Below are positions 1 through 35,597 of a DNA stretch of 35,597 bases, piece by piece (within the stretch, counting starts at the first letter, position 1; every line of letters begins with the position of its first letter). Source of the stretch: a virus (Duplodnaviria > Heunggongvirae > Uroviricota > Caudoviricetes); IMG/VR virus record IMGVR_UViG_643348551_000007. One strand, written 5' to 3'. A program made the translations under genes and the position numbers. The notes under the pieces were generated by a model that worked only from the letters and a program-made list of their open reading frames with translations, had not been told where the DNA came from and made no database searches.

Positions 1-62
1 GGTATCCGTTCTGCTGAAGTGTCATGGCGTTGATTTTACGGTGACTCTTCGACAGTGAAAAG

Positions 63-83
63 AAAAAAGGCCGCAGAGCGGCC
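63..83 (-). terminator. Rho-independent terminator candidate ending the int-side (minus-strand) operon
   Basis: GGCCGC-aga-GCGGCC hairpin at 69-83 preceded on the + strand by AAAAAA (63-68), so hairpin plus U-run when read on the minus strand; lies just downstream of the minus-strand gene ending at 209. Confidence 0.45.
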
Positions 84-208: not shown

Positions 209-646
209 TTACTTAATAACAGTAACCACAGCCACAAGCACGGCCATCGCAGACAGGACAATACCTGTGAGTAACCAAGTCTGATTTGCAAATGATTTCT
301 GAAGTTCAGTACGATGCTCAGCCATCTCAACTTTCAGAGACTGGCGTAAATCAGCCATCTCAGACTTCAGGGATTGGCGCGATTCTGCCATCTCAAGCCT
401 CAACCCTTCGCGAATCTCCAGTACATCAGATTTGGTAGCAAAGGATTCGCTTCTTGTGGTGAGAGTAATCAGGTTGTTTTTGATTTCAGTCACATCACTT
501 TCCAGGCAACTGACCCGCCGTTCAAGGTCGTCATTCATGCCATCACCTCCATCATTACCACTTCCTGTTACTTGGTTGTTGGATACATTATAGGCATTCT
601 CTTTCTTTTTTCTGAACCGCGAAATATGTGCAACATTCTCTGCCAT
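209..646 (-). CDS. Hypothetical coiled-coil protein with C-terminal transmembrane anchor (cargo gene downstream of int)
   Basis: ORF track 209..649; first ATG at 646 overlaps the stop of the upstream gene (ATGA coupling); repeated EMAE/LRQSLK heptad-like motifs and hydrophobic C-terminus WLLTGIVLSAMAVLVAVVTVIK; no family recognised. Confidence 0.55.
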   Translation of the reverse strand: MAENVAHISRFRKKKENAYNVSNNQVTGSGNDGGDGMNDDLERRVSCLESDVTEIKNNLITLTTRSESFATKSDVLEIREGLRLEMAESRQSLKSEMADLRQSLKVEMAEHRTELQKSFANQTWLLTGIVLSAMAVLVAVVTVIK

Positions 647-1008
647 CACTTCTCATCACCCTGCTTGCCTACCCAGTTCATAAAGGCCCGGGCCGAGTAA
701 CGATGAACAAACCCACATCTGTTACAGGTAAGTCGGAATTCATAGTTATGGATATTTTCCCGATCATGTCCCTCATATCCCGGATACCCAGTAAATGGAC
801 CGATGTAATCAAGCATAACAAAAGTGCCTAAATCACACTCCTCAGCAGTTTTCGGCTCAGGCCCCACCTCAACAATATTCGTCAAATACATGTACATATC
901 CGTATCGCCACACGACAAACATTTTTCATTCGTAGACGACTCATTGAGAAAACGCGCAAAATTATCGAGCGTTGCCATTCTTTTAAGTTCATCTAAATGA
1001 AACTTCAC
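646..1008 (-). CDS. Hypothetical zinc-ribbon protein (two CxxC pairs), cargo gene downstream of int
   Basis: ORF track 646..1008; CLSCGD and CNRCGF motifs; starts 2 bp after the int stop (GTG at 1008 or ATG at 978); same strand as int. Confidence 0.55.
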   Translation of the reverse strand: MKFHLDELKRMATLDNFARFLNESSTNEKCLSCGDTDMYMYLTNIVEVGPEPKTAEECDLGTFVMLDYIGPFTGYPGYEGHDRENIHNYEFRLTCNRCGFVHRYSARAFMNWVGKQGDEK

Positions 1009-1010
1009 TC

Positions 1011-1988
1011 TTAAGCACCTCCTAGTGGATTAAACCTCACCGCATCCTGCAGGTAATCCGGCGCAAGATGGGCATAAATCATCGTTGTCTGAATCTTTGC
1101 GTGCCCCAGAATTTTCTGGAGCGTCAGAATATTGCCGCCGTTCATCATGAAATGACTGGCGAAGGTGTGGCGCAGCGCATGAACAGCCTGGCCGTCAGGA
1201 ACATCAGGTGCGACCGTTTTGATGACATCGCGAACCAATGAATAATCCAGCGTCGGAAACACCAGTTTCCCGCCCCGTTTTTTGATCTTTTCAAACAGGC
1301 TTTCAGAAATAGGAACGGTACGGTTTTTGCTGTTCTTCGTTTTTGAAAAAGTGATTCGACAATGAAGAACACGGCGCTGCTCCAGTGCCGCTACCTCGCC
1401 CCATCGCGCCCCGGTCGACAGAAGGATTTCGACAGCCAGTCGTTCATCGGGATTTTCAGCCAGTGCATCCAGCAACTGAACACATTCAGACTTACTCAGA
1501 TATCCCATTTCGCGCTCGTTAACCTTCATTCCTTTAAGGCCTTGAACGGGGTTATCGTTAAGAAAATGGCCGGATGAGATGAGTGCGGTAAACATCGCGC
1601 TTAACGCCCCAATCTCTCGATTTATGGTGCTGGGCTGTATCCCCTGCTCTATCCTGGACACACGTAGCTCGGTGAGCATCGTTGTATTAAGTTTATGCAC
1701 GCACGGGTCATCCATTGCTTCACTCAAGCGCAGCAATTTAAGGCGCGTGTTATGCCCTGACTTCATTAGCTGGCCGTGGTATTTCCACCACAAGTCAATA
1801 AGCACTGACAGAGGACGGCGATCAATAGAGTTTCCTTTCCACTCATTGTTATGCTGTTGCGCCAGCACCCACCGCTCATATAAAACTGCATCCGATTTCG
1901 TTTTAAATTTTTTGCGAATGCGTTTGCCTTTACGCCCCTCAGGGCGCATGTCAAGAAGATACCCTCCCGGAATTGATTTTATGCTCAT
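1011..1988 (-). CDS. int: Tyrosine recombinase, P2-type phage integrase
   Basis: ORF track 1011..2138; C-terminal HALRHTFASHFMMNGGNILTLQKILGH...MIYAH catalytic region; N-terminus MSIKS...RPEGRKGKRIRKKF matches P2 Int, so start placed at internal ATG (1988). Confidence 0.93.
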   Translation of the reverse strand: MSIKSIPGGYLLDMRPEGRKGKRIRKKFKTKSDAVLYERWVLAQQHNNEWKGNSIDRRPLSVLIDLWWKYHGQLMKSGHNTRLKLLRLSEAMDDPCVHKLNTTMLTELRVSRIEQGIQPSTINREIGALSAMFTALISSGHFLNDNPVQGLKGMKVNEREMGYLSKSECVQLLDALAENPDERLAVEILLSTGARWGEVAALEQRRVLHCRITFSKTKNSKNRTVPISESLFEKIKKRGGKLVFPTLDYSLVRDVIKTVAPDVPDGQAVHALRHTFASHFMMNGGNILTLQKILGHAKIQTTMIYAHLAPDYLQDAVRFNPLGGA

Positions 1989-2037: not shown

Positions 2038-2346
2038 TTAGCCGGGCTGTGTACCAGTCTTGCGGGATTTTTGAGAAGACGATGTGTTTTCTGGCCCATC
2101 AGGGGAGAGAGAGGGACTGATCTGCCCAGCAGCCTCATTTGTTTTTCCCGTCATAAGCCAATTCATGTACTTAAAAAAGCGAGGGTGATTAACAATCTTG
2201 ATAAGCACTTCGCCCCCTATGTTTTCAATCCGCCCCGTTTCATAACGACGCAAAGTGCCGATAGGCACATCAATCAGGCCGCAAAATTCTTCGCGCGTTA
2301 AATCCTCTGATTCACGAATCACTCTAATTTTTTCACCGATAAGCAT
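2038..2346 (-). CDS. C: Immunity repressor, P2 C-like
   Basis: ORF track 2038..2382; about 100 aa HTH protein transcribed divergently from the cox-like gene and upstream of int as in P2; motif GTLRRYETGR resembles P2 C GTLSYYESGR; start set at internal ATG 2346. Confidence 0.8.
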   Translation of the reverse strand: MLIGEKIRVIRESEDLTREEFCGLIDVPIGTLRRYETGRIENIGGEVLIKIVNHPRFFKYMNWLMTGKTNEAAGQISPSLSPDGPENTSSSQKSRKTGTQPG

Positions 2347-3084: not shown

Positions 3085-3372
3085 ATGACCAAAGACCATG
3101 CACAAGGTGTATTTATCCGTTTTATTGATTTTCGCGGTGAACTGTTATTACGTGCATCCGCTATTGACGGAGTGACTCCGGCGGGTAAAAACGGAGCCGA
3201 CGAAGCCACTTACGTTTATCTGAACGGCACGCGACTGCTTGTGGAACTTCCGTACCAGACCGTACGAGAAATCATTAGCGAAGCTGAAAAGGCACGCCAG
3301 GTTAATGGCGATGAACCCTATATCGAAATTATTTGTATGGATTCAGAAGCTGAAATACAGAAAGCAGATTAA
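3085..3372 (+). CDS. Hypothetical early-operon protein
   Basis: ATG at 3085 preceded by AGGTG, immediately after the previous stop; track ORF 2971..3372 is an upstream extension overlapping the preceding gene. Confidence 0.55.
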   Translation: MTKDHAQGVFIRFIDFRGELLLRASAIDGVTPAGKNGADEATYVYLNGTRLLVELPYQTVREIISEAEKARQVNGDEPYIEIICMDSEAEIQKAD

Positions 3373-3383
3373 AGGGCGTTGTG

Positions 3384-3626
3384 ATGGGCAAAGAATATAA
3401 AACTCTCATTAACAAAGCACTTGAGCGTTTTTATTTTCGCTTAAGTGCATCAGGCGCTCATGCTGAACGTGCGGCCCGTGACTCATTGACCAGAGCAATC
3501 CGAAGTCTGTATGACGTGGCTTTTTACGCTGATGATCTGGATGCACTTAACGAACTTTCCGAGCTGATCTGTGCCGCAGAATGCGGGGAACATATTGAAC
3601 CGTATAAGCTGGGAAATATCGCATGA
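3384..3626 (+). CDS. Hypothetical early-operon protein
   Basis: ORF track 3381..3626 (GTG then ATG); 80 aa. Confidence 0.5.
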   Translation: MGKEYKTLINKALERFYFRLSASGAHAERAARDSLTRAIRSLYDVAFYADDLDALNELSELICAAECGEHIEPYKLGNIA

Positions 3627-3736
3627 GTATATTTATCTCATGGCTTGTTCTGATTATTTCGGTGGTCTGCGCCATTGGGATTATGCGAATTATTAATTCA
3701 GTAAAAAAGATTGAACGCTTTTTCACTGAAGAATAA
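3623..3736 (+). CDS. Small hydrophobic protein (37 aa), not in the ORF track
   Basis: ATG at 3623 overlaps the preceding stop (ATGA); translation MSIFISWLVLIISVVCAIGIMRIINSVKKIERFFTEE is a single predicted transmembrane helix. Confidence 0.35.
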   Translation: MSIFISWLVLIISVVCAIGIMRIINSVKKIERFFTEE

Positions 3737-3822
3737 CCGCGCAAATAAGACCCCAGGTTAAATAAGAAAATGTGAAAACAATCCGCATTCGCGGAGGTAT
3801 TCGCACACGCCAAGGAGGCGTA

Positions 3823-4026
3823 ATGGCAATTAAGCATTTTCCTGTCGTTCGTTTCACCTCCAGAGGACGTGAATACGAAGTTGACGAACGCCTGATTACC
3901 ACAATCGACAAACACCGTTCAGAAAAGGATGCACATCACATCTATCTCACTGACGGCACTTACTTCTGCGCCACCAACGTGGTGCAGGTAAATCTTATCA
4001 GACAGGTACAGGAGTCACGCAGATGA
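3823..4026 (+). CDS. Hypothetical early-operon protein
   Basis: ATG at 3823 preceded by AAGGAGG; track ORF 3772..4026 is an upstream extension. Confidence 0.5.
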   Translation: MAIKHFPVVRFTSRGREYEVDERLITTIDKHRSEKDAHHIYLTDGTYFCATNVVQVNLIRQVQESRR

Positions 4027-4268
4027 TCATTCTGGACTACATCGCTGCCAATCCGGGTTGTAGCGGTGGAGAAATCGCCGCAGCACTGAATACACCAACC
4101 ACAACCATTAATGCGGAGCTACGCCGTCTCTGGCGCAGCGGTTCAGTCATAAGAAAAGAGCGCAAAACAGGCGGTCGCTTTTCTTATCAGGTAAACCCGA
4201 TGCCGTTTGGGTGTAGCAACCCACTAACCCAGATGTTCAACCAGCTACTGAGGGAAATCAGAGCATGA
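4023..4268 (+). CDS. Hypothetical small protein, possibly winged-helix DNA-binding
   Basis: ORF track 4023..4268; ATGA overlap with upstream gene; basic helix RRLWRSGSVIRKERK. Confidence 0.5.
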   Translation: MIILDYIAANPGCSGGEIAAALNTPTTTINAELRRLWRSGSVIRKERKTGGRFSYQVNPMPFGCSNPLTQMFNQLLREIRA

Positions 4269-4409
4269 GCACCTCCAACTGCCGGAAACCACGTCGGGCT
4301 TCAGCAGCTCATCCGGCAGCAAAACAAACTCCATTAATTCCTGTTCCGGGCCTTTCCTGCACCTTGCGGCGGGAGGCCTTCGCACATCTGTAACAAGAGG
4401 ATTGCCGCA

Positions 4410-4775
4410 ATGATTCTCGCCAACGACTTTCTTGAATACCTGCTCAACACAGAACGTGATCTTGCCGCTCGCGTGCGTGATCGTTATGACATGTACCTGA
4501 AATCCCTGCCTGTACCGCAGCTCGCTGACGGAAAGATTGTTATTGATGGTCGCTACATGATTGACAGCCACGAGGGAAATTACAGGCTTTACCGCATTGA
4601 AAGTGGCACCCCGTCCGTTATTGGCATTTACCAGCGCCCATCCTCTGCAATCGTCGATGTGATTGCCGACAGCATCCGCATCACACATCGCCATGCCGAC
4701 ACAGAAGACACCGTGCTGGAAATTCAGCGGCTGGCTACAGTCTGCCGCGACACCCTGAATGGCATGACGAAGTAA
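4410..4775 (+). CDS. Hypothetical early-operon protein
   Basis: ORF track 4410..4775; AAGAGGA Shine-Dalgarno upstream; ends 6 bp before gene A. Confidence 0.55.
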   Translation: MILANDFLEYLLNTERDLAARVRDRYDMYLKSLPVPQLADGKIVIDGRYMIDSHEGNYRLYRIESGTPSVIGIYQRPSSAIVDVIADSIRITHRHADTEDTVLEIQRLATVCRDTLNGMTK

Positions 4776-22022: not shown

Positions 22023-24008
22023 ATGAGTACCACAACACGAAAATTTAAAACCGTTATCACCGATACAGGTGCCAAAAAATTAGCTCAGGCAGCCGCGCCA
22101 GATGGTAAGCCTGTCCGCCTGACTCATATGGCCGTGGGCGACGGTGGCGGCACGTTGCCCACACCAGACAGTAAGCAGACCCGTCTGGTGCATGAGGTGT
22201 GGCGACACACTGTTAATCGCGTCATCCTGGACGCAACACATCAGAACCGCATTATTGCGGAGCTGGTTATTCCTCCTGAAACGGGCGGATTCTGGATCCG
22301 GGAAATTGGTGTATTTGATGAGCACGGCGATTTAATCGCGGTGGGCAATACTGCCGAAAGTTACAAACCAACCGTTGCCGAAGGGTCCGGACGTGCACAA
22401 ACATTTCGCACCATTCTGACCGTATCCAGCACTGCCACCGTGGCGCTTACCGTGGATAACACCATGGTGATGGCCACAGTGGATTACGTGGATGACAAAC
22501 TGAAAGAGCATGAACAGTCACGACGTCACCCGGACGCCTCGCTGACCGCAAAAGGCTTTGTTCAACTCAGTAGCGCCACTAACAGCGTGTCTGAAACGCA
22601 GGCTGCAACGCCGAAAGCGGTTAAGGCCGCCTATGACCTTGCTAACGGGAAATATACCGCACAGGACGCCACTATAGCGCGAAAAGGCCTTGTTCAGCTC
22701 AGTAGCGCCACCAACAGCGATTCTGAAACGCTGGCGGCAACACCAAAGGCGGTAAAGGCAGCATATGACCTTGCTAACGGGAAATATACCGCACAGGACG
22801 CTACCACAGCGCGAAAAGGTCTTGTCCAGCTCAGTAGTGCCACCAACAGCACGTCTGAAACATTGGCCGCGACATCGAAAGCGGTTAAGGCGGTAATGGA
22901 TGAAACAAATAAGAAAGCCCCATTAAACAGCCCGACGCTGACCGGAACGCCAACAACACCAACTGCGCGACAGGGAACGAATAATACCCAAATCGCAAGC
23001 ACGGCTTTCGTTATGGCTGCGATTGCCGCCCTTGTAGATTCGTCACCTGATGCACTGAACACGCTGAACGAGCTGGCTGCGGCGTTGGGCAACGACCCGA
23101 ATTTTGCGACCACCATGACTAACGCGCTTGCGGGTAAGCAACCGAAAGATGCCACCCTGACGGCGCTGGCCGGGCTTGCTACTGCGGCAGACAGGTTTCC
23201 GTATTTTACGGGGAATGATGTCGCCAGCCTGGCAACTCTGACAAAAGTCGGGCGGGATATTCTTGCGAAATCGACCGTTGCCGCCGTTATCGAATACCTC
23301 GGTTTACGAGAACTCGGCACAAGCGGGGAGAAAATACCGTTACTCAGTACAGCGAATACCTGGACCAATCGACAAACATTCAGCGGTGGCCTTTCTGGGG
23401 AACTGTCCGGCAATGCCGCTACTGCAACAAAGCTGAAAACAGCACGAAAAATTGCTGGAGTTGGTTTTGATGGTTCTAGCGATATTTCAATTAGTGCCAA
23501 AAATGTCAATGCATTTGCACTCCGACAAACAGGTAATACTGTTAATGGTGATACATCCGTTGGATGGAATTGGGATAGTGGTGCATATAACGCCATGATT
23601 GGTGGTGCATCTGCATTAATTCTTCACTTTAATATAAATGCTGGTAGCTGTCCTGCCGTACAATTCCGTGTGAATTATAAAAATGGTGGCATTTCCTACA
23701 GGTCGGCTCGTGATGGTTATGGGTTTGAATTAGGTTGGTCAGATTTCTATACCACGACACGAAAACCTTCAGCGGGAGATGTTGGTGCATATACGCGGGC
23801 AGAATGTAACTCAAGGTTTATTACAGGTATTCGCCTTGGCGGTCTGTCATCTGTTCAGACATGGAATGGTCCCGGCTGGTCTGACAGGTCAGGTTATGTC
23901 GTTACGGGTTCAGTTAACGGAAACCGTGATGAATTAATTGATACAACACAGGCAAGGCCAATTCAGTATTGCATTAATGGGACGTGGTATAACGCGGGGA
24001 GTATTTAA
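22023..24008 (+). CDS. H: Tail fibre protein, constant N-terminal part fused to the currently expressed variable C-terminus
   Basis: 661 aa; tandem repeats in the shaft; C-terminus ...IQYCINGTWYNAGSI; followed by a tail-fibre assembly gene. Confidence 0.9.
   Translation: MSTTTRKFKTVITDTGAKKLAQAAAPDGKPVRLTHMAVGDGGGTLPTPDSKQTRLVHEVWRHTVNRVILDATHQNRIIAELVIPPETGGFWIREIGVFDEHGDLIAVGNTAESYKPTVAEGSGRAQTFRTILTVSSTATVALTVDNTMVMATVDYVDDKLKEHEQSRRHPDASLTAKGFVQLSSATNSVSETQAATPKAVKAAYDLANGKYTAQDATIARKGLVQLSSATNSDSETLAATPKAVKAAYDLANGKYTAQDATTARKGLVQLSSATNSTSETLAATSKAVKAVMDETNKKAPLNSPTLTGTPTTPTARQGTNNTQIASTAFVMAAIAALVDSSPDALNTLNELAAALGNDPNFATTMTNALAGKQPKDATLTALAGLATAADRFPYFTGNDVASLATLTKVGRDILAKSTVAAVIEYLGLRELGTSGEKIPLLSTANTWTNRQTFSGGLSGELSGNAATATKLKTARKIAGVGFDGSSDISISAKNVNAFALRQTGNTVNGDTSVGWNWDSGAYNAMIGGASALILHFNINAGSCPAVQFRVNYKNGGISYRSARDGYGFELGWSDFYTTTRKPSAGDVGAYTRAECNSRFITGIRLGGLSSVQTWNGPGWSDRSGYVVTGSVNGNRDELIDTTQARPIQYCINGTWYNAGSI
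22551..22946 (+). repeat. Three in-frame tandem repeats of 132 bp (44 aa) inside H
   Basis: KGFVQLSSATNS.SET.AATPKAVKAAYDLANGKYTAQDAT.AR repeated starting at about 22551, 22683 and 22815; third copy diverges at its end. Confidence 0.75.
23287..23313 (+). other. gix-like recombination (crossover) site, left
   Basis: TTATCGAATACCTCGGTTTACGAGAAC; shares the ACCTCGGTTTAC core with the right site and with Gin gix sites. Confidence 0.7.
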
Positions 24009-32415: not shown

Positions 32416-33513
32416 ATGACCGACACCACCATGCAATTGCTCAGTCAGGGCACAGACCCCGTGAAAATGCCGGATTTTGATATTCTCGCGGAGGGTAAAA
32501 CGCTGTCAGGCGTGGCAGAGCGCCTGATGAGCCTGTCACTGACCGACAACCGGGGATTTGAGGCGGACCAGCTCACCATCACGCTGGATGATGCGGATGG
32601 TCAGTTGCAGCTACCGCCACGGGGCGCGCGCCTGACGGTTCTCATTGGCTGGAAAGGAGAACCGCTGACAGAAAAAGGCACTTACATTGTTGATGAAATC
32701 GCTCACGAAGGACCGCCGGACAGGCTGACGGTTTCAGCCAGAAGCGCAGATTTTCGGGATGAATTTAACGTTAAACGTGAGGTGTCCTGGCATGATGTGA
32801 CCGTTGAGCGCGTGGTATCCGCCATCGCTCATCGGTACGGTCTGAAACCACAAATCAGCGAAATGCTGATGGATATTGAAATCGACCACGCCGACCAGAC
32901 CGAAGAAAGCGACATGTCCTTCCTTACGCGCATGGCGGAAATGCTGGGCGCAATCACTACGGTAAAAAGCGGTAATCTGTTATTCATCATGCCAGGCGGT
33001 GGCGTGAACGCGCAGGGCCAGCCGTTGCCCTCGTTCGCCATCACACGCAGCAGCGGCGATCGCCATCAGTTCCGCATTGCTGACCGAGAGGCGTATACGG
33101 GGGTACGCGCTTACTGGCTTGATCTTAATTACGGGAAAAAGAAAAAAGTCAGCGTGAAACGCCGTAAACCGAAAATGGAGAAAAGCAGTAGCCGTGAAGG
33201 CGACTATATGGAAGGTGCGGAAGGCAACGTGTTTGTGTTACGCAAGACTTATCAGAACGAACAGGCAGCAAGACGCGCTGCGGCGGCAAAGTGGCAGCAG
33301 CTACAACGCGGAGCCGCATCATTCTCCATCACACTGGCACGTGGACGCGCAGAACTCTACCCCGAAATGCATGGCACGGTAACAGGATTTAAAAGCGAGA
33401 TTGATAATCAGGACTGGATTATTGCAAAAGCCGAGCACACCATTGATAACAGCGGTTTTACCACGCAGCTTGAACTTGAAACAAAAATCCCTGAATGGAT
33501 TGCGCAGACCTAA
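32416..33513 (+). CDS. D: Tail protein D (late control gene D family)
   Basis: LSLTDNRGFEADQL, RSADFR, SWHD, ITRSDGDRH-like, EGDYMEGAEGNVF and SGFTTQLELE blocks match P2 gpD as I recall it; start set at ATG 32416 with GGGAGGG Shine-Dalgarno. Confidence 0.9.
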   Translation: MTDTTMQLLSQGTDPVKMPDFDILAEGKTLSGVAERLMSLSLTDNRGFEADQLTITLDDADGQLQLPPRGARLTVLIGWKGEPLTEKGTYIVDEIAHEGPPDRLTVSARSADFRDEFNVKREVSWHDVTVERVVSAIAHRYGLKPQISEMLMDIEIDHADQTEESDMSFLTRMAEMLGAITTVKSGNLLFIMPGGGVNAQGQPLPSFAITRSSGDRHQFRIADREAYTGVRAYWLDLNYGKKKKVSVKRRKPKMEKSSSREGDYMEGAEGNVFVLRKTYQNEQAARRAAAAKWQQLQRGAASFSITLARGRAELYPEMHGTVTGFKSEIDNQDWIIAKAEHTIDNSGFTTQLELETKIPEWIAQT

Positions 33514-33643: not shown

Positions 33644-34804
33644 TTAATCAAGTTTTTGCTGATGATACCGATACAGCATCATTCTAAGTTTTAGCAAGGT
33701 TGTACTATCATTATCTGCAGAGCAAAAATTATACCAACCTTCAGTATATTTATTTAAAGTATCAAAGTAATAATCCTTCAATGGATCATCCCTATCTGAG
33801 TGGAGACAAGAAAACATCTTCTGAAGAATATAATTTAATTCACCTGTAGGAAGCCTCGAAATAATCACATCACAAGTAGTTGTTAAATCTTCAATATTCA
33901 TTTTCTGAAGATTATTTCTAATCTCTAAAACGATCGGATAGAGTTTACTCAAAAACTCATTTACTTCATCTTGAAGATGCTTCTCTTTAACACAACCATC
34001 AAACAAATGAATTAACTCTTCCAATTGCATTCGGTAATAATCATTATTACCTCGTATAGCGACTTCTGAAAGAAGCAGCCTCAACTCATCATAAATGTTA
34101 TCGGTGGATGATATAACTTGCGCGGACAAAACATCGTAATGGTTGTTACGAATTACCACTATAGAGTCCATTAGTTTTTCTAGATATTTATACCTACTTT
34201 CAACATATGAGATAAGCTCGTTAAATTTAATACCGAAAATAACATCATCCACACCGGGTTTATTATTATAAAGACTTATAGTAAAATCATTATTATTAAG
34301 TGCATAAAAATGAGGCCAACTCGCAAACAATCTCTCCCCGTGGTTATTTTTAAGATTCGTAGGGTGAGCACCAAAAATAGCGCGAACACTCTTAAAATAA
34401 GAGTCATCATCCTCATGCGAAAGATAATGTATTTTATCCTTAAAAATATCAACAGAGCCTTTAAAGGGCCATTTCATAAAATTATTGTCACTTTCAATAA
34501 TACGATGGAGTTGCCGCACCGCTTCCACTATTATATCGATTGATGATATAATAGTATAAATCTGCATAGCTTTAATATCAATGTCTTCAGATATTTCAGG
34601 GATGTTCATAAGATAGCGTACAGAAACAGTAATCCAATCCATGCATGAACAAATAGGGCTGAACTGATTTTTACCATTTCTGTTTATGAAGTAACTATAA
34701 ACAAAATCTCTTTCATTAACTACATCGCGAAAATCCGTTATTAAAGTATCATTAATAGTTATACCAAAATTTGTCTTAGTTATCTTCATGGTGACCATTT
34801 TCAC
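33644..34804 (-). CDS. AT-rich cargo gene, hypothetical 386-aa cytoplasmic protein (possible Abi/HEPN-like)
   Basis: ORF track; strongly AT-rich, opposite orientation to flanking D and ogr; contains an R-x5-H stretch (RAIFGAH); no TM segments. Confidence 0.7.
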   Translation of the reverse strand: MKMVTMKITKTNFGITINDTLITDFRDVVNERDFVYSYFINRNGKNQFSPICSCMDWITVSVRYLMNIPEISEDIDIKAMQIYTIISSIDIIVEAVRQLHRIIESDNNFMKWPFKGSVDIFKDKIHYLSHEDDDSYFKSVRAIFGAHPTNLKNNHGERLFASWPHFYALNNNDFTISLYNNKPGVDDVIFGIKFNELISYVESRYKYLEKLMDSIVVIRNNHYDVLSAQVISSTDNIYDELRLLLSEVAIRGNNDYYRMQLEELIHLFDGCVKEKHLQDEVNEFLSKLYPIVLEIRNNLQKMNIEDLTTTCDVIISRLPTGELNYILQKMFSCLHSDRDDPLKDYYFDTLNKYTEGWYNFCSADNDSTTLLKLRMMLYRYHQQKLD

Positions 34805-35005: not shown

Positions 35006-35266
35006 ATGTTCCGTTGTCCGCTTTGTGGCGCATCTGCCCGTATCCGCACCAGTCGTCCGGAAAATGATTCAAACACCGTGCGGCAAAAGTATTACCAGTG
35101 TAACAACCTGGAATGCGGCGTATGCTTCTCAACACTGGAAGCTTTCCATAAATTCACATCGAAACACGCCTCCGGCGTTCACTCTTCAGATGGTATCCCG
35201 TGGCATGAGCTGCCAGCTTCACACAGGGGAAACAATCAGATGAGTTTGCCTTTACCTCAGAATTAA
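35006..35266 (+). CDS. ogr: Zinc-finger late-gene transcriptional activator, Ogr/Delta family
   Basis: MFRCPLCGASARIRTSR...YYQCNNLECG parallels P2 Ogr (MFHCPLC...YHQCQNVNCS) with four Cys; AAGGGAGG Shine-Dalgarno. Confidence 0.9.
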   Translation: MFRCPLCGASARIRTSRPENDSNTVRQKYYQCNNLECGVCFSTLEAFHKFTSKHASGVHSSDGIPWHELPASHRGNNQMSLPLPQN

Positions 35267-35456: not shown

Positions 35457-35597
35457 ATGTCGCAAAAATCGCTTACGGCCATCACGTTCTGCGTGACGGC
35501 AATCCTCATCATCTGGATGCTGCACGGTTCGCTGTGCGAAATACGGATGAGCTTCTGGGGAGCGGAGTTTGCGGCGTTCTTACAGTGTAAGCAGTAA
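35457..35597 (+). CDS. Hok/Gef-family type I toxin (46 aa)
   Basis: Not in the ORF track (<60 aa); translation MSQKSLTAITFCVTAILIIWMLHGSLCEIRMSFWGAEFAAFLQCKQ has an N-terminal TM helix plus the SLCEI and AAF signatures of Hok peptides (closest in my memory to HokA); AGGAG Shine-Dalgarno; stop codon is the last 3 bases of the window. Confidence 0.65.
   Translation: MSQKSLTAITFCVTAILIIWMLHGSLCEIRMSFWGAEFAAFLQCKQ

Follow-up and report, generated by a model that had tools for sequence, protein, structure and literature searches.

The two small genes between the integrase gene (int) and the attachment site at the left end of the window (the whole stretch of viral DNA analysed, 35,597 nucleotides) form a conserved, mobile two-gene unit, which temperate phages of several kinds carry within their lysogeny operons. 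The genes are best explained, tentatively, as a mobile accessory ("moron") cassette of a P2-like E. coli prophage that is expressed in the lysogen and is most likely a phage-exclusion or abortive-infection module.

Gene organization

The genes of this part of the window are:

209-649, minus strand: ORF2, predicted tail-anchored coiled-coil partner of ORF1, 146 aa (GTG start) or 145 aa (ATG start, 646)
646-1008, minus strand: ORF1 (ZnR), predicted Cys4 zinc-ribbon protein, 120 aa (ORF list, annotation and homologue alignment)
1011-1988, minus strand: int, P2-type tyrosine integrase (Pfam Int_N and Phage_integrase; annotation)
2038-2346, minus strand: C-type immunity repressor, HTH, leading the presumed lysogenic operon C-int-ORF1-ORF2 (Pfam HTH_3, phrog_147 and annotation)

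The coordinates of int are those of the PGAP start, and its reading frame is open as far as 2138. Its TAA stop codon (1011-1013) is separated from ORF1 by the 2 nt gap reported in the initial annotation (1009-1010). ORF1 begins with GTG (1006-1008), which corrects the earlier description, and has AGGTG seven nt upstream. Its TGA stop codon (646-648) overlaps the start of ORF2 whichever of two start codons is used, either the GTG at 647-649, giving 146 aa and a GTGA overlap, or the ATG at 644-646, the PGAP call, giving 145 aa and a TGATG overlap. The overlap had been read as ATGA; that the genes overlap stands, but the junction in the window is GTGATG, and it is in close variants, which have ATGATG, that the ATGA is found. 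ORF2 ends with a TAA stop codon at 209-211. Tight coupling from int to ORF1 and from ORF1 to ORF2, by overlaps or by gaps of no more than 3 nt, recurs in diverged homologues. More than 1000 contigs have ORF2 called at 109 aa; this reflects another choice of start in the same locus and not a further context.

The prophage boundary and the terminator

The features to the left of the pair are:

58-83, minus strand: intrinsic terminator, GGCCGC-UCU-GCGGCC followed by a U-run (terminator scan, RNA fold and position in the empty site)
59-83, no strand: attL core (AAAGAAAAAAGGCCGCAGAGCGGCC, 25 bp), left prophage boundary (attL/attB/attR comparison)
84-208, no strand: attP arm between the core and the cargo, AT-rich (35% GC) and non-coding (GC content; comparison with variant prophages)

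The comparison with an unoccupied site that the initial annotation had proposed located the attL core at 59-83, mapped from attL, attR and the empty btuC/ihfA site of E. coli genomes. The core is identical in attL (the window), attB (the empty site of Nissle, L002) and attR (L004). Positions 1-83 of the window are found in 5425 of 5426 complete E. coli genomes, and the genomes with an empty site match these positions and nothing further. It had been noted that an attL between int and the pair would make the two genes part of the host; the core lies to the left of both, so that ORF1 and ORF2 are inside the prophage and are prophage genes, not host genes. Indeed, in an excised circular P2-like genome of Klebsiella, a homologous pair is present between int and attP. 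A direct repeat (58-74 and 33137-33153) was rejected as a marker of attR, since the second copy is inside gene D and the true attR is past the end of the window.

A hairpin terminator had been placed at 63-83, after the pair. There is a terminator there, but the hairpin is at 69-83 with a T-run at 58-68 on the minus strand, and the sequence is of host origin: in the empty site it lies 17 nt past the stop codon of ihfA. It is therefore the ihfA terminator, embedded in the att core, and is not specific to the cargo. Past the end of ORF2 in the lysogen, no convincing terminator comes before it.

Variation at the int-att slot

The int gene of the window is present in 305 E. coli genomes, 81-85 of which have the window pair, while the remaining int carriers have a version of the pair that is 23-36% identical or an unrelated gene. 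In these variant prophages both int and the 84-208 segment are matched and the cargo between them differs. Three alternative contents of the slot are thus seen beside int genes that are 98-99% identical: the window pair, the divergent pair, and an unrelated gene of 131 aa. Because the content of the slot differs among prophages with near-identical int, the ORF1-ORF2 pair is variable cargo, and the initial description of two small cargo genes is borne out. The cargo deviates from the backbone in composition, with a GC content of 43-45% against 51%. Of complete E. coli genomes, about 1.5% have the window pair. For P2-like phages the int-att slot is already on record as a minor defence hotspot, reportedly with 3% of the P2 defence systems (PMC13586616).

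Distribution of the cassette

The pair is also present in Shigella, Salmonella, Klebsiella, Morganella, Rahnella, and Photorhabdus, and in almost all loci the ORFs matched by the HMMs of the two families adjoin or overlap. The cassette recurs as an overlapping pair. In P2-like phages it is either after int or between the repressor and int. One Rahnella prophage, of the lambdoid kind (L020), has it directly after a cI-like repressor, opposite cro, and in one context (L018) it is within a tail module, outside any lysogeny operon. In Photorhabdus remnants both genes are intact although int and C have decayed. Solitary partner-like genes without a ZnR gene are present in Erwinia, and one ZnR gene was found without a partner. 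The families of ORF1 and ORF2 are confined to phages and prophages.

Among sequenced phages, megablast with positions 1-1100 of the window gave no match, tblastn with ORF2 found none, and tblastn with ORF1 found the Klebsiella record only. A search of species-representative genomes with the single ZnR protein found no related locus.

Selection on ORF1 and ORF2

In comparison with the Salmonella homologues, dN/dS is 0.23 for ORF1 and 0.23 for ORF2, and it is 0.18 for codons 1-36 of ORF2. The four Cys, G99 and W112 of ORF1 are invariant among homologues down to 22% identity. With a dN/dS of about 0.2 and these invariant residues, ORF1 and ORF2 go beyond chance ORFs and are real genes under purifying selection. 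The variant comparison also shows an in-frame indel in the region of the ORF2 N-terminal peptide.

ORF1, a predicted zinc-ribbon protein

The two CxxC pairs that had been noted in the 120-aa protein are CLSC at residues 30-33 and CNRC at residues 95-98:

910-921, minus strand: first zinc knuckle, C30-L-S-C33 (invariant alignment columns)
715-726, minus strand: second zinc knuckle, C95-N-R-C98, followed by the invariant G99 (invariant alignment columns)

All of 17 sequences, with identity down to 22%, have C30, C33, C95, and C98. The AF2 model (pLDDT 80, pTM 0.72) has strands beside both knuckles, and ORF1 matches phrog_4293 (E 3e-30). A sequence search of the PDB with the ZnR profile found nothing below E 0.2, and the best Foldseek match in BFVD has an E of only 0.011; such weak structural matches as there are belong to zinc-ribbon proteins (Rpb9, TFIIS-type). 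The sequence and the model together point to a Cys4 zinc ribbon without a known fold relative. What ORF1 shares with generic Cys4 zinc ribbons (TFIIS/Rpb9-type, Ogr/Delta, Lar-like) is the presence of two CxxC knuckles on predicted beta-hairpins.

ORF2, a predicted membrane-anchored stalk

ORF2 matches phrog_9415 (E 1e-42). The following parts can be distinguished:

539-649, minus strand: residues 1-37, variable N-terminal peptide and Gly/Asp run (GSGNDGGDG), proposed docking peptide for ORF1
275-538, minus strand: residues 38-125, predicted coiled-coil stalk with heptads, beta-layer and three 11-residue repeats (alignment, AF2 helix)
425-442, minus strand: residues 70-75, FATKSD, putative beta-layer motif of parallel trimeric coiled coils
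215-274, minus strand: residues 126-145 (LLTGIVLSAMAVLVAVVTVI), predicted C-terminal TM helix, with one residue beyond it

The AF2 model of the monomer has residues 1-37 disordered (pLDDT <50) and a single helix from 38 to 145. The frame of the N-terminal peptide is open in every homologue. Its last codons (GGAGGTGAT) form a Shine-Dalgarno-like sequence before the internal Met38, which is nearly universal among homologues and absent in those of Photorhabdus. The 11-residue repeats are residues 86-118 (nt 296-394), with 33-nt direct repeats at 318-383. As first described, this is a coiled-coil protein of 146 aa with a terminal transmembrane anchor: the only hydrophobic stretch is residues 126-145, with a mean KD of 2.65, and this putative TM helix is rich in small residues. 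The hydrophobic C-terminus is conserved in all homologues, after QT(K)W.

The ORF2 profile aligns FATKSD to the MATKDD of Tcar0761 (PDB 5apz), and the beta-layer consensus is [aliphatic]-A-T-K-[polar]-[DE] (PMC4786415). In the ORF2 family the A, T, K, and D are conserved and K73 is invariant, while the first position is aromatic (F/Y) where the consensus has an aliphatic residue. A trimer with a beta-layer may be inferred from this six-residue motif, in which F replaces the aliphatic residue.

The DUF1640/CCDC90-like proteins (PF07798; MCUR1/CCDC90B and prokaryotic relatives) have in common with ORF2 a coiled-coil stalk and a C-terminal TM anchor, and FATKSD may correspond to their beta-layer motif. 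ORF2 differs in having F for the aliphatic residue, in lacking a folded head, its N-terminus being disordered, and in its obligate pairing with a phage zinc-ribbon gene. PF07798 does not match the window ORF2 at E<=0.1. Both the variant partner (L056), at 26.5 bits (E 6.7e-6), and an Erwinia relative, at 29.6 bits, fall short of the gathering score of 33.5 bits. RefSeq names the variant partner in the int-att slot 'DUF1640 domain-containing' or 'CCDC90 family', and the UniRef name of one close ORF2 homologue is DUF1640.

Co-variation of the two proteins

The type of ZnR co-varies more with the N-terminal peptide of the partner (Mantel r of identities 0.72) than with the stalk (0.53). There are also clear chimeras, one being seen in the comparison of the window with a Salmonella locus (L060), with 29% identity in ZnR, 19% in the N-terminal peptide and 81% in the stalk and TM helix. 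This co-variation could stem from physical linkage instead of contact.

Predicted expression of the pair

The lysogenic operon of P2 consists of C and int and is transcribed from Pc (PMC3936717). In the window, a terminator scan from the C repressor gene to the att-core terminator found no convincing terminator between the two. The pair would be read through from the Pc-driven C-int transcript, which would end at the ihfA terminator in the att core, and would therefore be made in the lysogen. Expression in the lysogen is suggested by the structure of the operon and the P2 precedent, and indirectly by the placement of the cassette after cI in the lambdoid prophage and, in other P2-like phages, between repressor and int. 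A σ70-like site within the pair (616->587) was considered, but 3 such sites were found where 3.5 are expected and the site is weakened in one variant, so no internal promoter is claimed. Translation would be by coupling, from the int stop codon to ORF1 and from the ORF1 stop codon to the overlapping start of ORF2. P2 keeps int low, and translation by coupling to it could mean very low levels of ORF1 and ORF2.

Searches of Pfam, NCBIfam, and PADLOC-DB 2.0 with both window proteins gave nothing significant, a Cas12a match in PADLOC-DB 2.0 (E 0.03) being at chance level. Matches between the variant partner and ZorA or LmuB in PADLOC were discounted as generic coiled-coil segments. No homology to RexA or RexB was found by Pfam, PHROG, or PADLOC, nor any match to a toxin or antitoxin family in Pfam, PADLOC, or NCBIfam. 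The Rfam scan of the window found no family, and the literature search found no paper on either protein.

A possible exclusion module and its alternatives

The pair is a candidate phage-exclusion or addiction module, and an exclusion function is suggested by its setting. ORF2 would form a parallel trimeric stalk facing the cytoplasm, DUF1640-like and with a beta-layer at FATKSD, the C-terminal helix of which would be in the inner membrane. Its disordered N-terminal peptide, on the Gly/Asp linker, may dock cytoplasmic ORF1; sensing or regulation would then fall to the zinc-ribbon subunit, and the part of membrane effector to the clustered small-residue TM helices of ORF2.

A more specific version is possible, if doubtful: that the pair represents an unrecognised class of lysogen-expressed, membrane-tethered conflict system in enterobacterial temperate phages, with a tail-anchored trimeric alpha/beta stalk, three docking peptides and a zinc-ribbon sensor of novel fold. 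Infection, or loss of the sensor, would free the TM helices to breach the membrane. Specificity would change through swaps of the sensor and docking peptide against the stalk and TM helix at the Gly-run joint, and the Met38 start may add a regulatory isoform without the peptide.

The exclusion genes rexA-rexB of lambda are expressed in the lysogen, co-transcribed with cI, and RexB is polytopic. Like them, the pair is a two-gene cassette after the immunity repressor in the lambdoid prophage L020, and within the C-int operon in P2-like phages, and is predicted to have one cytoplasmic and one membrane product. The analogy is of position only, there being no likeness of sequence or fold, and ORF2 has one C-terminal helix and a long, predicted trimeric stalk in place of the polytopic RexB. 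With the cargo hotspots of P2-like phages (old/tin, Z/fun and the minor int-att slot) the pair shares the character of a variable, lower-GC cassette in a fixed slot, flanked by conserved phage sequence and exchanged among near-identical backbones, although it matches no catalogued defence family and is also found outside P2-like phages.

A toxin-antitoxin or addiction role, in which ORF2 would be a membrane-depolarising toxin neutralised by the upstream, coupled ORF1, so that the prophage or its remnant is stabilised, is unlikely. In layout the pair resembles such a module, a two-gene operon in which the genes overlap and the regulator is upstream. Indeed, type II toxin-antitoxin operons are also made up of two small overlapping genes kept in decaying mobile elements, and this pair is intact in the Photorhabdus remnants with degraded int and C. 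The small-residue-rich TM helix is as in small membrane toxins, and a Hok-family toxin is encoded at the other end of the same prophage, so addiction genes belong to the repertoire of this prophage. The pair, however, has no likeness to any toxin-antitoxin family, type II included; a coiled coil of 90 residues and variable length is unusual for a small membrane toxin; and the partner-like genes that stand alone in Erwinia, without ZnR, would be odd for a toxin that is not neutralised. A toxin-antitoxin role overlaps with abortive infection, and would thus not wholly displace the favoured reading.

Slightly less probable is a lysogenic conversion of host physiology, for example by a membrane-tethered scaffold by which a host protein or nucleic acid is sequestered or positioned. 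The tail-anchored proteins of the YqjD/ElaB type do this with ribosomes, and the predicted tail-anchored, cytoplasm-facing architecture of ORF2, with its variable stalk length, would suit such a role. That the pair is cargo of a lysogen operon is also consistent with it, and that remnants keep the pair points to some gain for the host. Against this, neither protein has homology to YqjD/ElaB or to any host family, the family is restricted to phages and prophages, and alleles at the one slot are replaced rapidly and modules shuffled, which fits conflict systems better than a benefit of the housekeeping kind.

The location of the pair, adjoining int and coupled with it beside the attP arm, might indicate an accessory for the phage's own control of lysogeny or its integration and excision, either as a zinc-finger binder at attL/attP or as a membrane tether of a regulator. 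P2-family phages do use Cys4 zinc-finger regulators (Ogr, window 35006-35266). Such a role is improbable, given that unrelated genes fill the slot in prophages that share int and att, that the cassette is also found after cI in a lambdoid phage and in a tail module, and that there is no likeness to the Ogr, Cox, or Xis families.

A pair involved in lysis, whether holin/antiholin-like with dual starts, XhlA-like or spanin-like, is very improbable. The combination of a coiled coil and a single TM helix, a conserved Met after a purine-rich run of Gly codons that could serve as a second start, and a weak PHROG match to an Rz-like spanin (E 0.035) would accord with it. The genes nevertheless belong to the lysogeny operon, far from the lysis cassette, and are read from the other strand than the early and late genes; the C-terminal anchor gives a topology opposite to that of Rz, and the internal Met is missing in the Photorhabdus homologues. 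A reading of the two ORFs as genes of the host, or as non-functional remnants, outside the prophage, for which there is their position at the edge of the element only, is refuted by the att mapping, which places attL to their left, and is at odds with the 5425 empty-site genomes that lack them, the purifying selection on both and the pair in an excised phage genome.

Implications

Should the pair be inert cargo, the mapping of the att site and the alleles of the hotspot would still be useful annotation. For the favoured reading as an exclusion or abortive-infection module, the comparative data predict that the N-terminal peptide binds ZnR, that stalk length and the TM helix matter, and that chimeras joined at the Gly run are functional. 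If the pair is indeed an exclusion, abortive-infection, or addiction module, prophage conflict systems would gain a new two-protein architecture, in which a zinc-ribbon protein of novel fold is docked on a trimeric stalk with a tail anchor. A prokaryotic stalk protein of the DUF1640-like beta-layer type would then be given a function in a phage setting for the first time, and P2-like phages would have a concrete, widespread occupant for their minor int-att hotspot.

Integration into the ihfA terminator

Of 5426 complete E. coli genomes, 5425 contain window positions 1–83 and only 85 contain most of 1–1100. The empty site of strain Nissle 1917 has this 83 nt segment after btuC, then the ihfA stop after another 17 nt, an adjacency that identifies the hairpin in the segment as the ihfA terminator. 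The initial annotation had seen a hairpin downstream of the two ORFs, which is indeed present, but it spans 58–83 rather than 63–83 and belongs to ihfA rather than to the cargo. The features of this end of the prophage are as follows.

58–83: hairpin of six all-GC pairs with a U-run
59–83: 25 bp att core AAAGAAAAAAGGCCGCAGAGCGGCC (1559–1583 in the Nissle 1917 locus, L002; about 1840–1864 in the carrier genome, L004)
209–649, minus strand: ORF2, start GTG 647–649 (146 aa) or ATG 644–646 (145 aa, the RefSeq call), stop TAA 209–211
646–1008, minus strand: ORF1, start GTG 1006–1008, stop TGA 646–648, 120 codons, with CxxC pairs CLSC (residues 30–33) and CNRC (residues 95–98)
1011–1013, minus strand: int stop TAA

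The core, defined by comparing attL from the window, attB from Nissle 1917, and attR from L004, holds the entire hairpin and T-run of the ihfA intrinsic terminator, which is the integration target of this prophage family. As the whole terminator is inside the core, a working copy is left at either end after integration, for ihfA at attR and for the phage lysogenic operon at attL. The comparison with an unoccupied site that had been proposed places attL to the left of both ORFs, not between int and the pair, so that both are inside the element, as first supposed, and a host origin is refuted. A Klebsiella assembly includes a 32 kb extrachromosomal P2-like genome in which the repressor gene C, int, a zinc-ribbon homologue, and its partner are in the same order, with tail-end genes following the partner across attP; the pair travels with the phage.

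At the other end, an ORF of the Hok/Gef toxin family (containing GSLCEIRMSF; 35458–35597, plus strand) is the last gene before attR, which in L004 is seen about 280 bp beyond the window end; the window ends at the stop codon of this ORF. No Sok-like RNA was found in the window by Rfam scan.

An obligate pair of genes

The initial annotation was otherwise accurate as to the two-base gap between int and ORF1 and the 120 aa product with two CxxC pairs. The stop of ORF1 does overlap the start of ORF2, but as GTGATG, not the ATGA described; close variants have ATGATG. Against Salmonella homologues, dN/dS is 0.23 for each ORF and 0.18 for ORF2 codons 1–36, and an indel in the N-terminal region of ORF2 keeps the frame. 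The family HMMs match adjacent, usually overlapping, ORFs at essentially all retrieved loci. The exceptions are one zinc-ribbon gene adjoining type I-F cas genes, without a recognisable partner, solitary partner-like genes in Erwinia, and Photorhabdus kayaii (L031), where the partner and an int stump are the sole detections. On these sequence comparisons, both are real genes and an obligate pair. The solitary gene in Erwinia, without an upstream zinc-ribbon gene, is between map and glnD (L025 3929–4399; L026 3827–4615), with a Gly run, a SFATHAD coiled coil, a long 11-residue repeat array, and a C-terminal TM segment.

The ORF1 family is small: HMMER run against all 1.84 billion representatives finds 16 at E ≤ 1e-3, and a profile search gives 18 clusters, all named 'hypothetical'. 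The PHROG assignments, phrog_4293 for ORF1 and phrog_9415 for ORF2, are both without known function. C30, C33, C95, C98, G99, and W112 of ORF1 are invariant down to 22% identity. Its confident model (pLDDT 80, pTM 0.72) has two N-terminal helices with a conserved TPxxFaxFL, a sheet bearing both knuckles, and a C-terminal helix. That of ORF2 is disordered over residues 1–37, then a single helix across 38–145, the only strongly hydrophobic stretch being 126–145.

The ORF2 family profile gives its best matches to 5apz and 7o92, two alpha/beta coiled-coil constructs, with FATKSD of ORF2 aligned to the MATKDD beta-layer. The motif [aliphatic]-A-T-K-[polar]-[DE] is a signature of coiled coils that form parallel trimers, and membrane proteins of the DUF1640 type show it prominently (PMC4786415). 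The window ORF2 has no match to Pfam CCDC90-like/DUF1640, and relatives score 26.5–29.6 bits against a cutoff of 33.5. Stalk length differs with the number of 11-residue repeats, which ranges from zero to many.

Modular evolution of the partner

In every homologue the frame is open from Met38 of ORF2 back to the zinc-ribbon stop, and the motif class of the N-terminal peptide tracks the type of zinc-ribbon protein: xSxxRKKxxxYN with short forms (the window, L013, L017, L018) and xPLPFP-like with long forms (L014, L021, L054, L060, L062). The prediction of this rule was borne out by Salmonella P0038, where a window-like stalk (81% identity) has the other peptide class and a 165 aa zinc-ribbon protein. 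Over 16 pairs, the Mantel r of zinc-ribbon identity is 0.72 with the peptide and 0.53 with the stalk. The Gly/Asp run would provide both a flexible linker and a joint for recombination, and the peptide is a putative docking site for the zinc-ribbon protein; physical linkage is an alternative explanation for this co-variation. A Shine–Dalgarno-like GGAGGTGA formed by the Gly codons precedes the nearly universal Met38, which would allow a second, peptide-less isoform. The Photorhabdus homologues do not have this Met.

Allelic exchange between int and att

The int of the window is present in 305 E. coli genomes, mostly at 95–99% DNA identity, 81 of which have the window's pair. Alternative contents of the interval (L003 3190–3585; L056 710–1748; L058) are a 166 aa zinc-ribbon protein (23% identity) whose partner shows 36% identity over the stalk and is named 'DUF1640 domain-containing' or 'CCDC90 family' in RefSeq, as in O157:H7 strain FRIK2069, and a single unrelated 131 aa ORF, sequenced in L003, whose match pattern recurs in strains such as O104:H4 C227-11 and O127:H6. 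The flanks, int and the attP arm at 84–208, are conserved, and the cargo is 43–45% GC against 51% for the prophage. That the pair is cargo in an allelic swap site is near certain.

Elsewhere in the prophage, an AT-rich (32% GC) ORF of 386 aa (33644–34804, minus strand), without Pfam or PADLOC match, is between tail gene D (ending at 33513) and ogr (35006–35266). Strain 12E115 has a GmrSD restriction endonuclease in this position, which makes it another cargo swap site and the ORF a second unknown defence candidate. Within a 661 aa ORF (22023–24008), presumably a tail-fibre gene, a 132 nt unit is present in three tandem copies (22532–22927), 84% and 64% identical to the first.

Genomic contexts and expression

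At the edge of prophages in E. coli, Shigella, Salmonella, and further genera, the pair comes after a P2-type int, the genes overlapping or spaced by no more than 3 nt. In three viral contigs it is flanked by int and a repressor-like HTH gene, all on the same strand. In a Rahnella lambdoid prophage it begins at the final base of a cI-like repressor gene, opposite a P22_Cro-type cro, the position of rexAB in lambda, and in another myophage it is between the tape-measure and DNA-circulation genes. In P2, C and int form a lysogenic operon driven by Pc (PMC3936717), and no convincing terminator was found in the window ahead of the att core. Together with the placements, these argue for probable expression of the pair in the lysogen.

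Other P2-like phages have further cargo beside the pair in the C–int operon (L014 2494–3111, 4111–4947; L054 2124–3422; L055 2618–3514), namely VasI-domain proteins, a 278 aa membrane protein, and 200 aa proteins with a C-terminal TM segment, so that the whole lysogenic operon acts as a cargo site. A 17 nt direct repeat, GCACAAGGTGTAyTTAT, is present at 2379–2395, in the C/cox switch region adjoining the TATAAGTACAC palindrome, and at 3100–3116, 721 nt apart; these are possible operator-like sites.

Predicted function

The pair may form a membrane-tethered complex, made in the lysogen, that would act as a phage-exclusion or abortive-infection module, although this function is a guess and tentatively held. 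A toxin–antitoxin or addiction role, which may overlap with abortive infection, is unlikely, although the operon layout fits, as does retention in remnants. Four Photorhabdus species (L027–L030) have a decayed P2-like remnant, flanked by cobS and cobC/cobT, in which both genes are intact at about 3300–4600 (zinc-ribbon protein 116 aa, partner 97 aa); in L028, the locus inspected, stumps of 86 and 63 codons are left of int and the repressor, respectively. This intact pair suggests domestication or addiction. Host-directed conversion is distinctly improbable, an accessory role in recombination or lysogeny very much so, and lysis scarcely credible, as all three fit worse with the allelic swapping, multi-phage distribution, and operon position.

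What is stated here on structure and on cargo status is near certain. As far as the literature was searched, no description was found of either protein family, their pairing, or their modular evolution. The interval between int and att of P2-like phages has been reported as a minor defence hotspot, with 3% of systems (2026 survey, PMC13586616); the location is already known, but this occupant is not. Moron cassettes in lysogeny operons or at hotspots are likewise a known kind of element.
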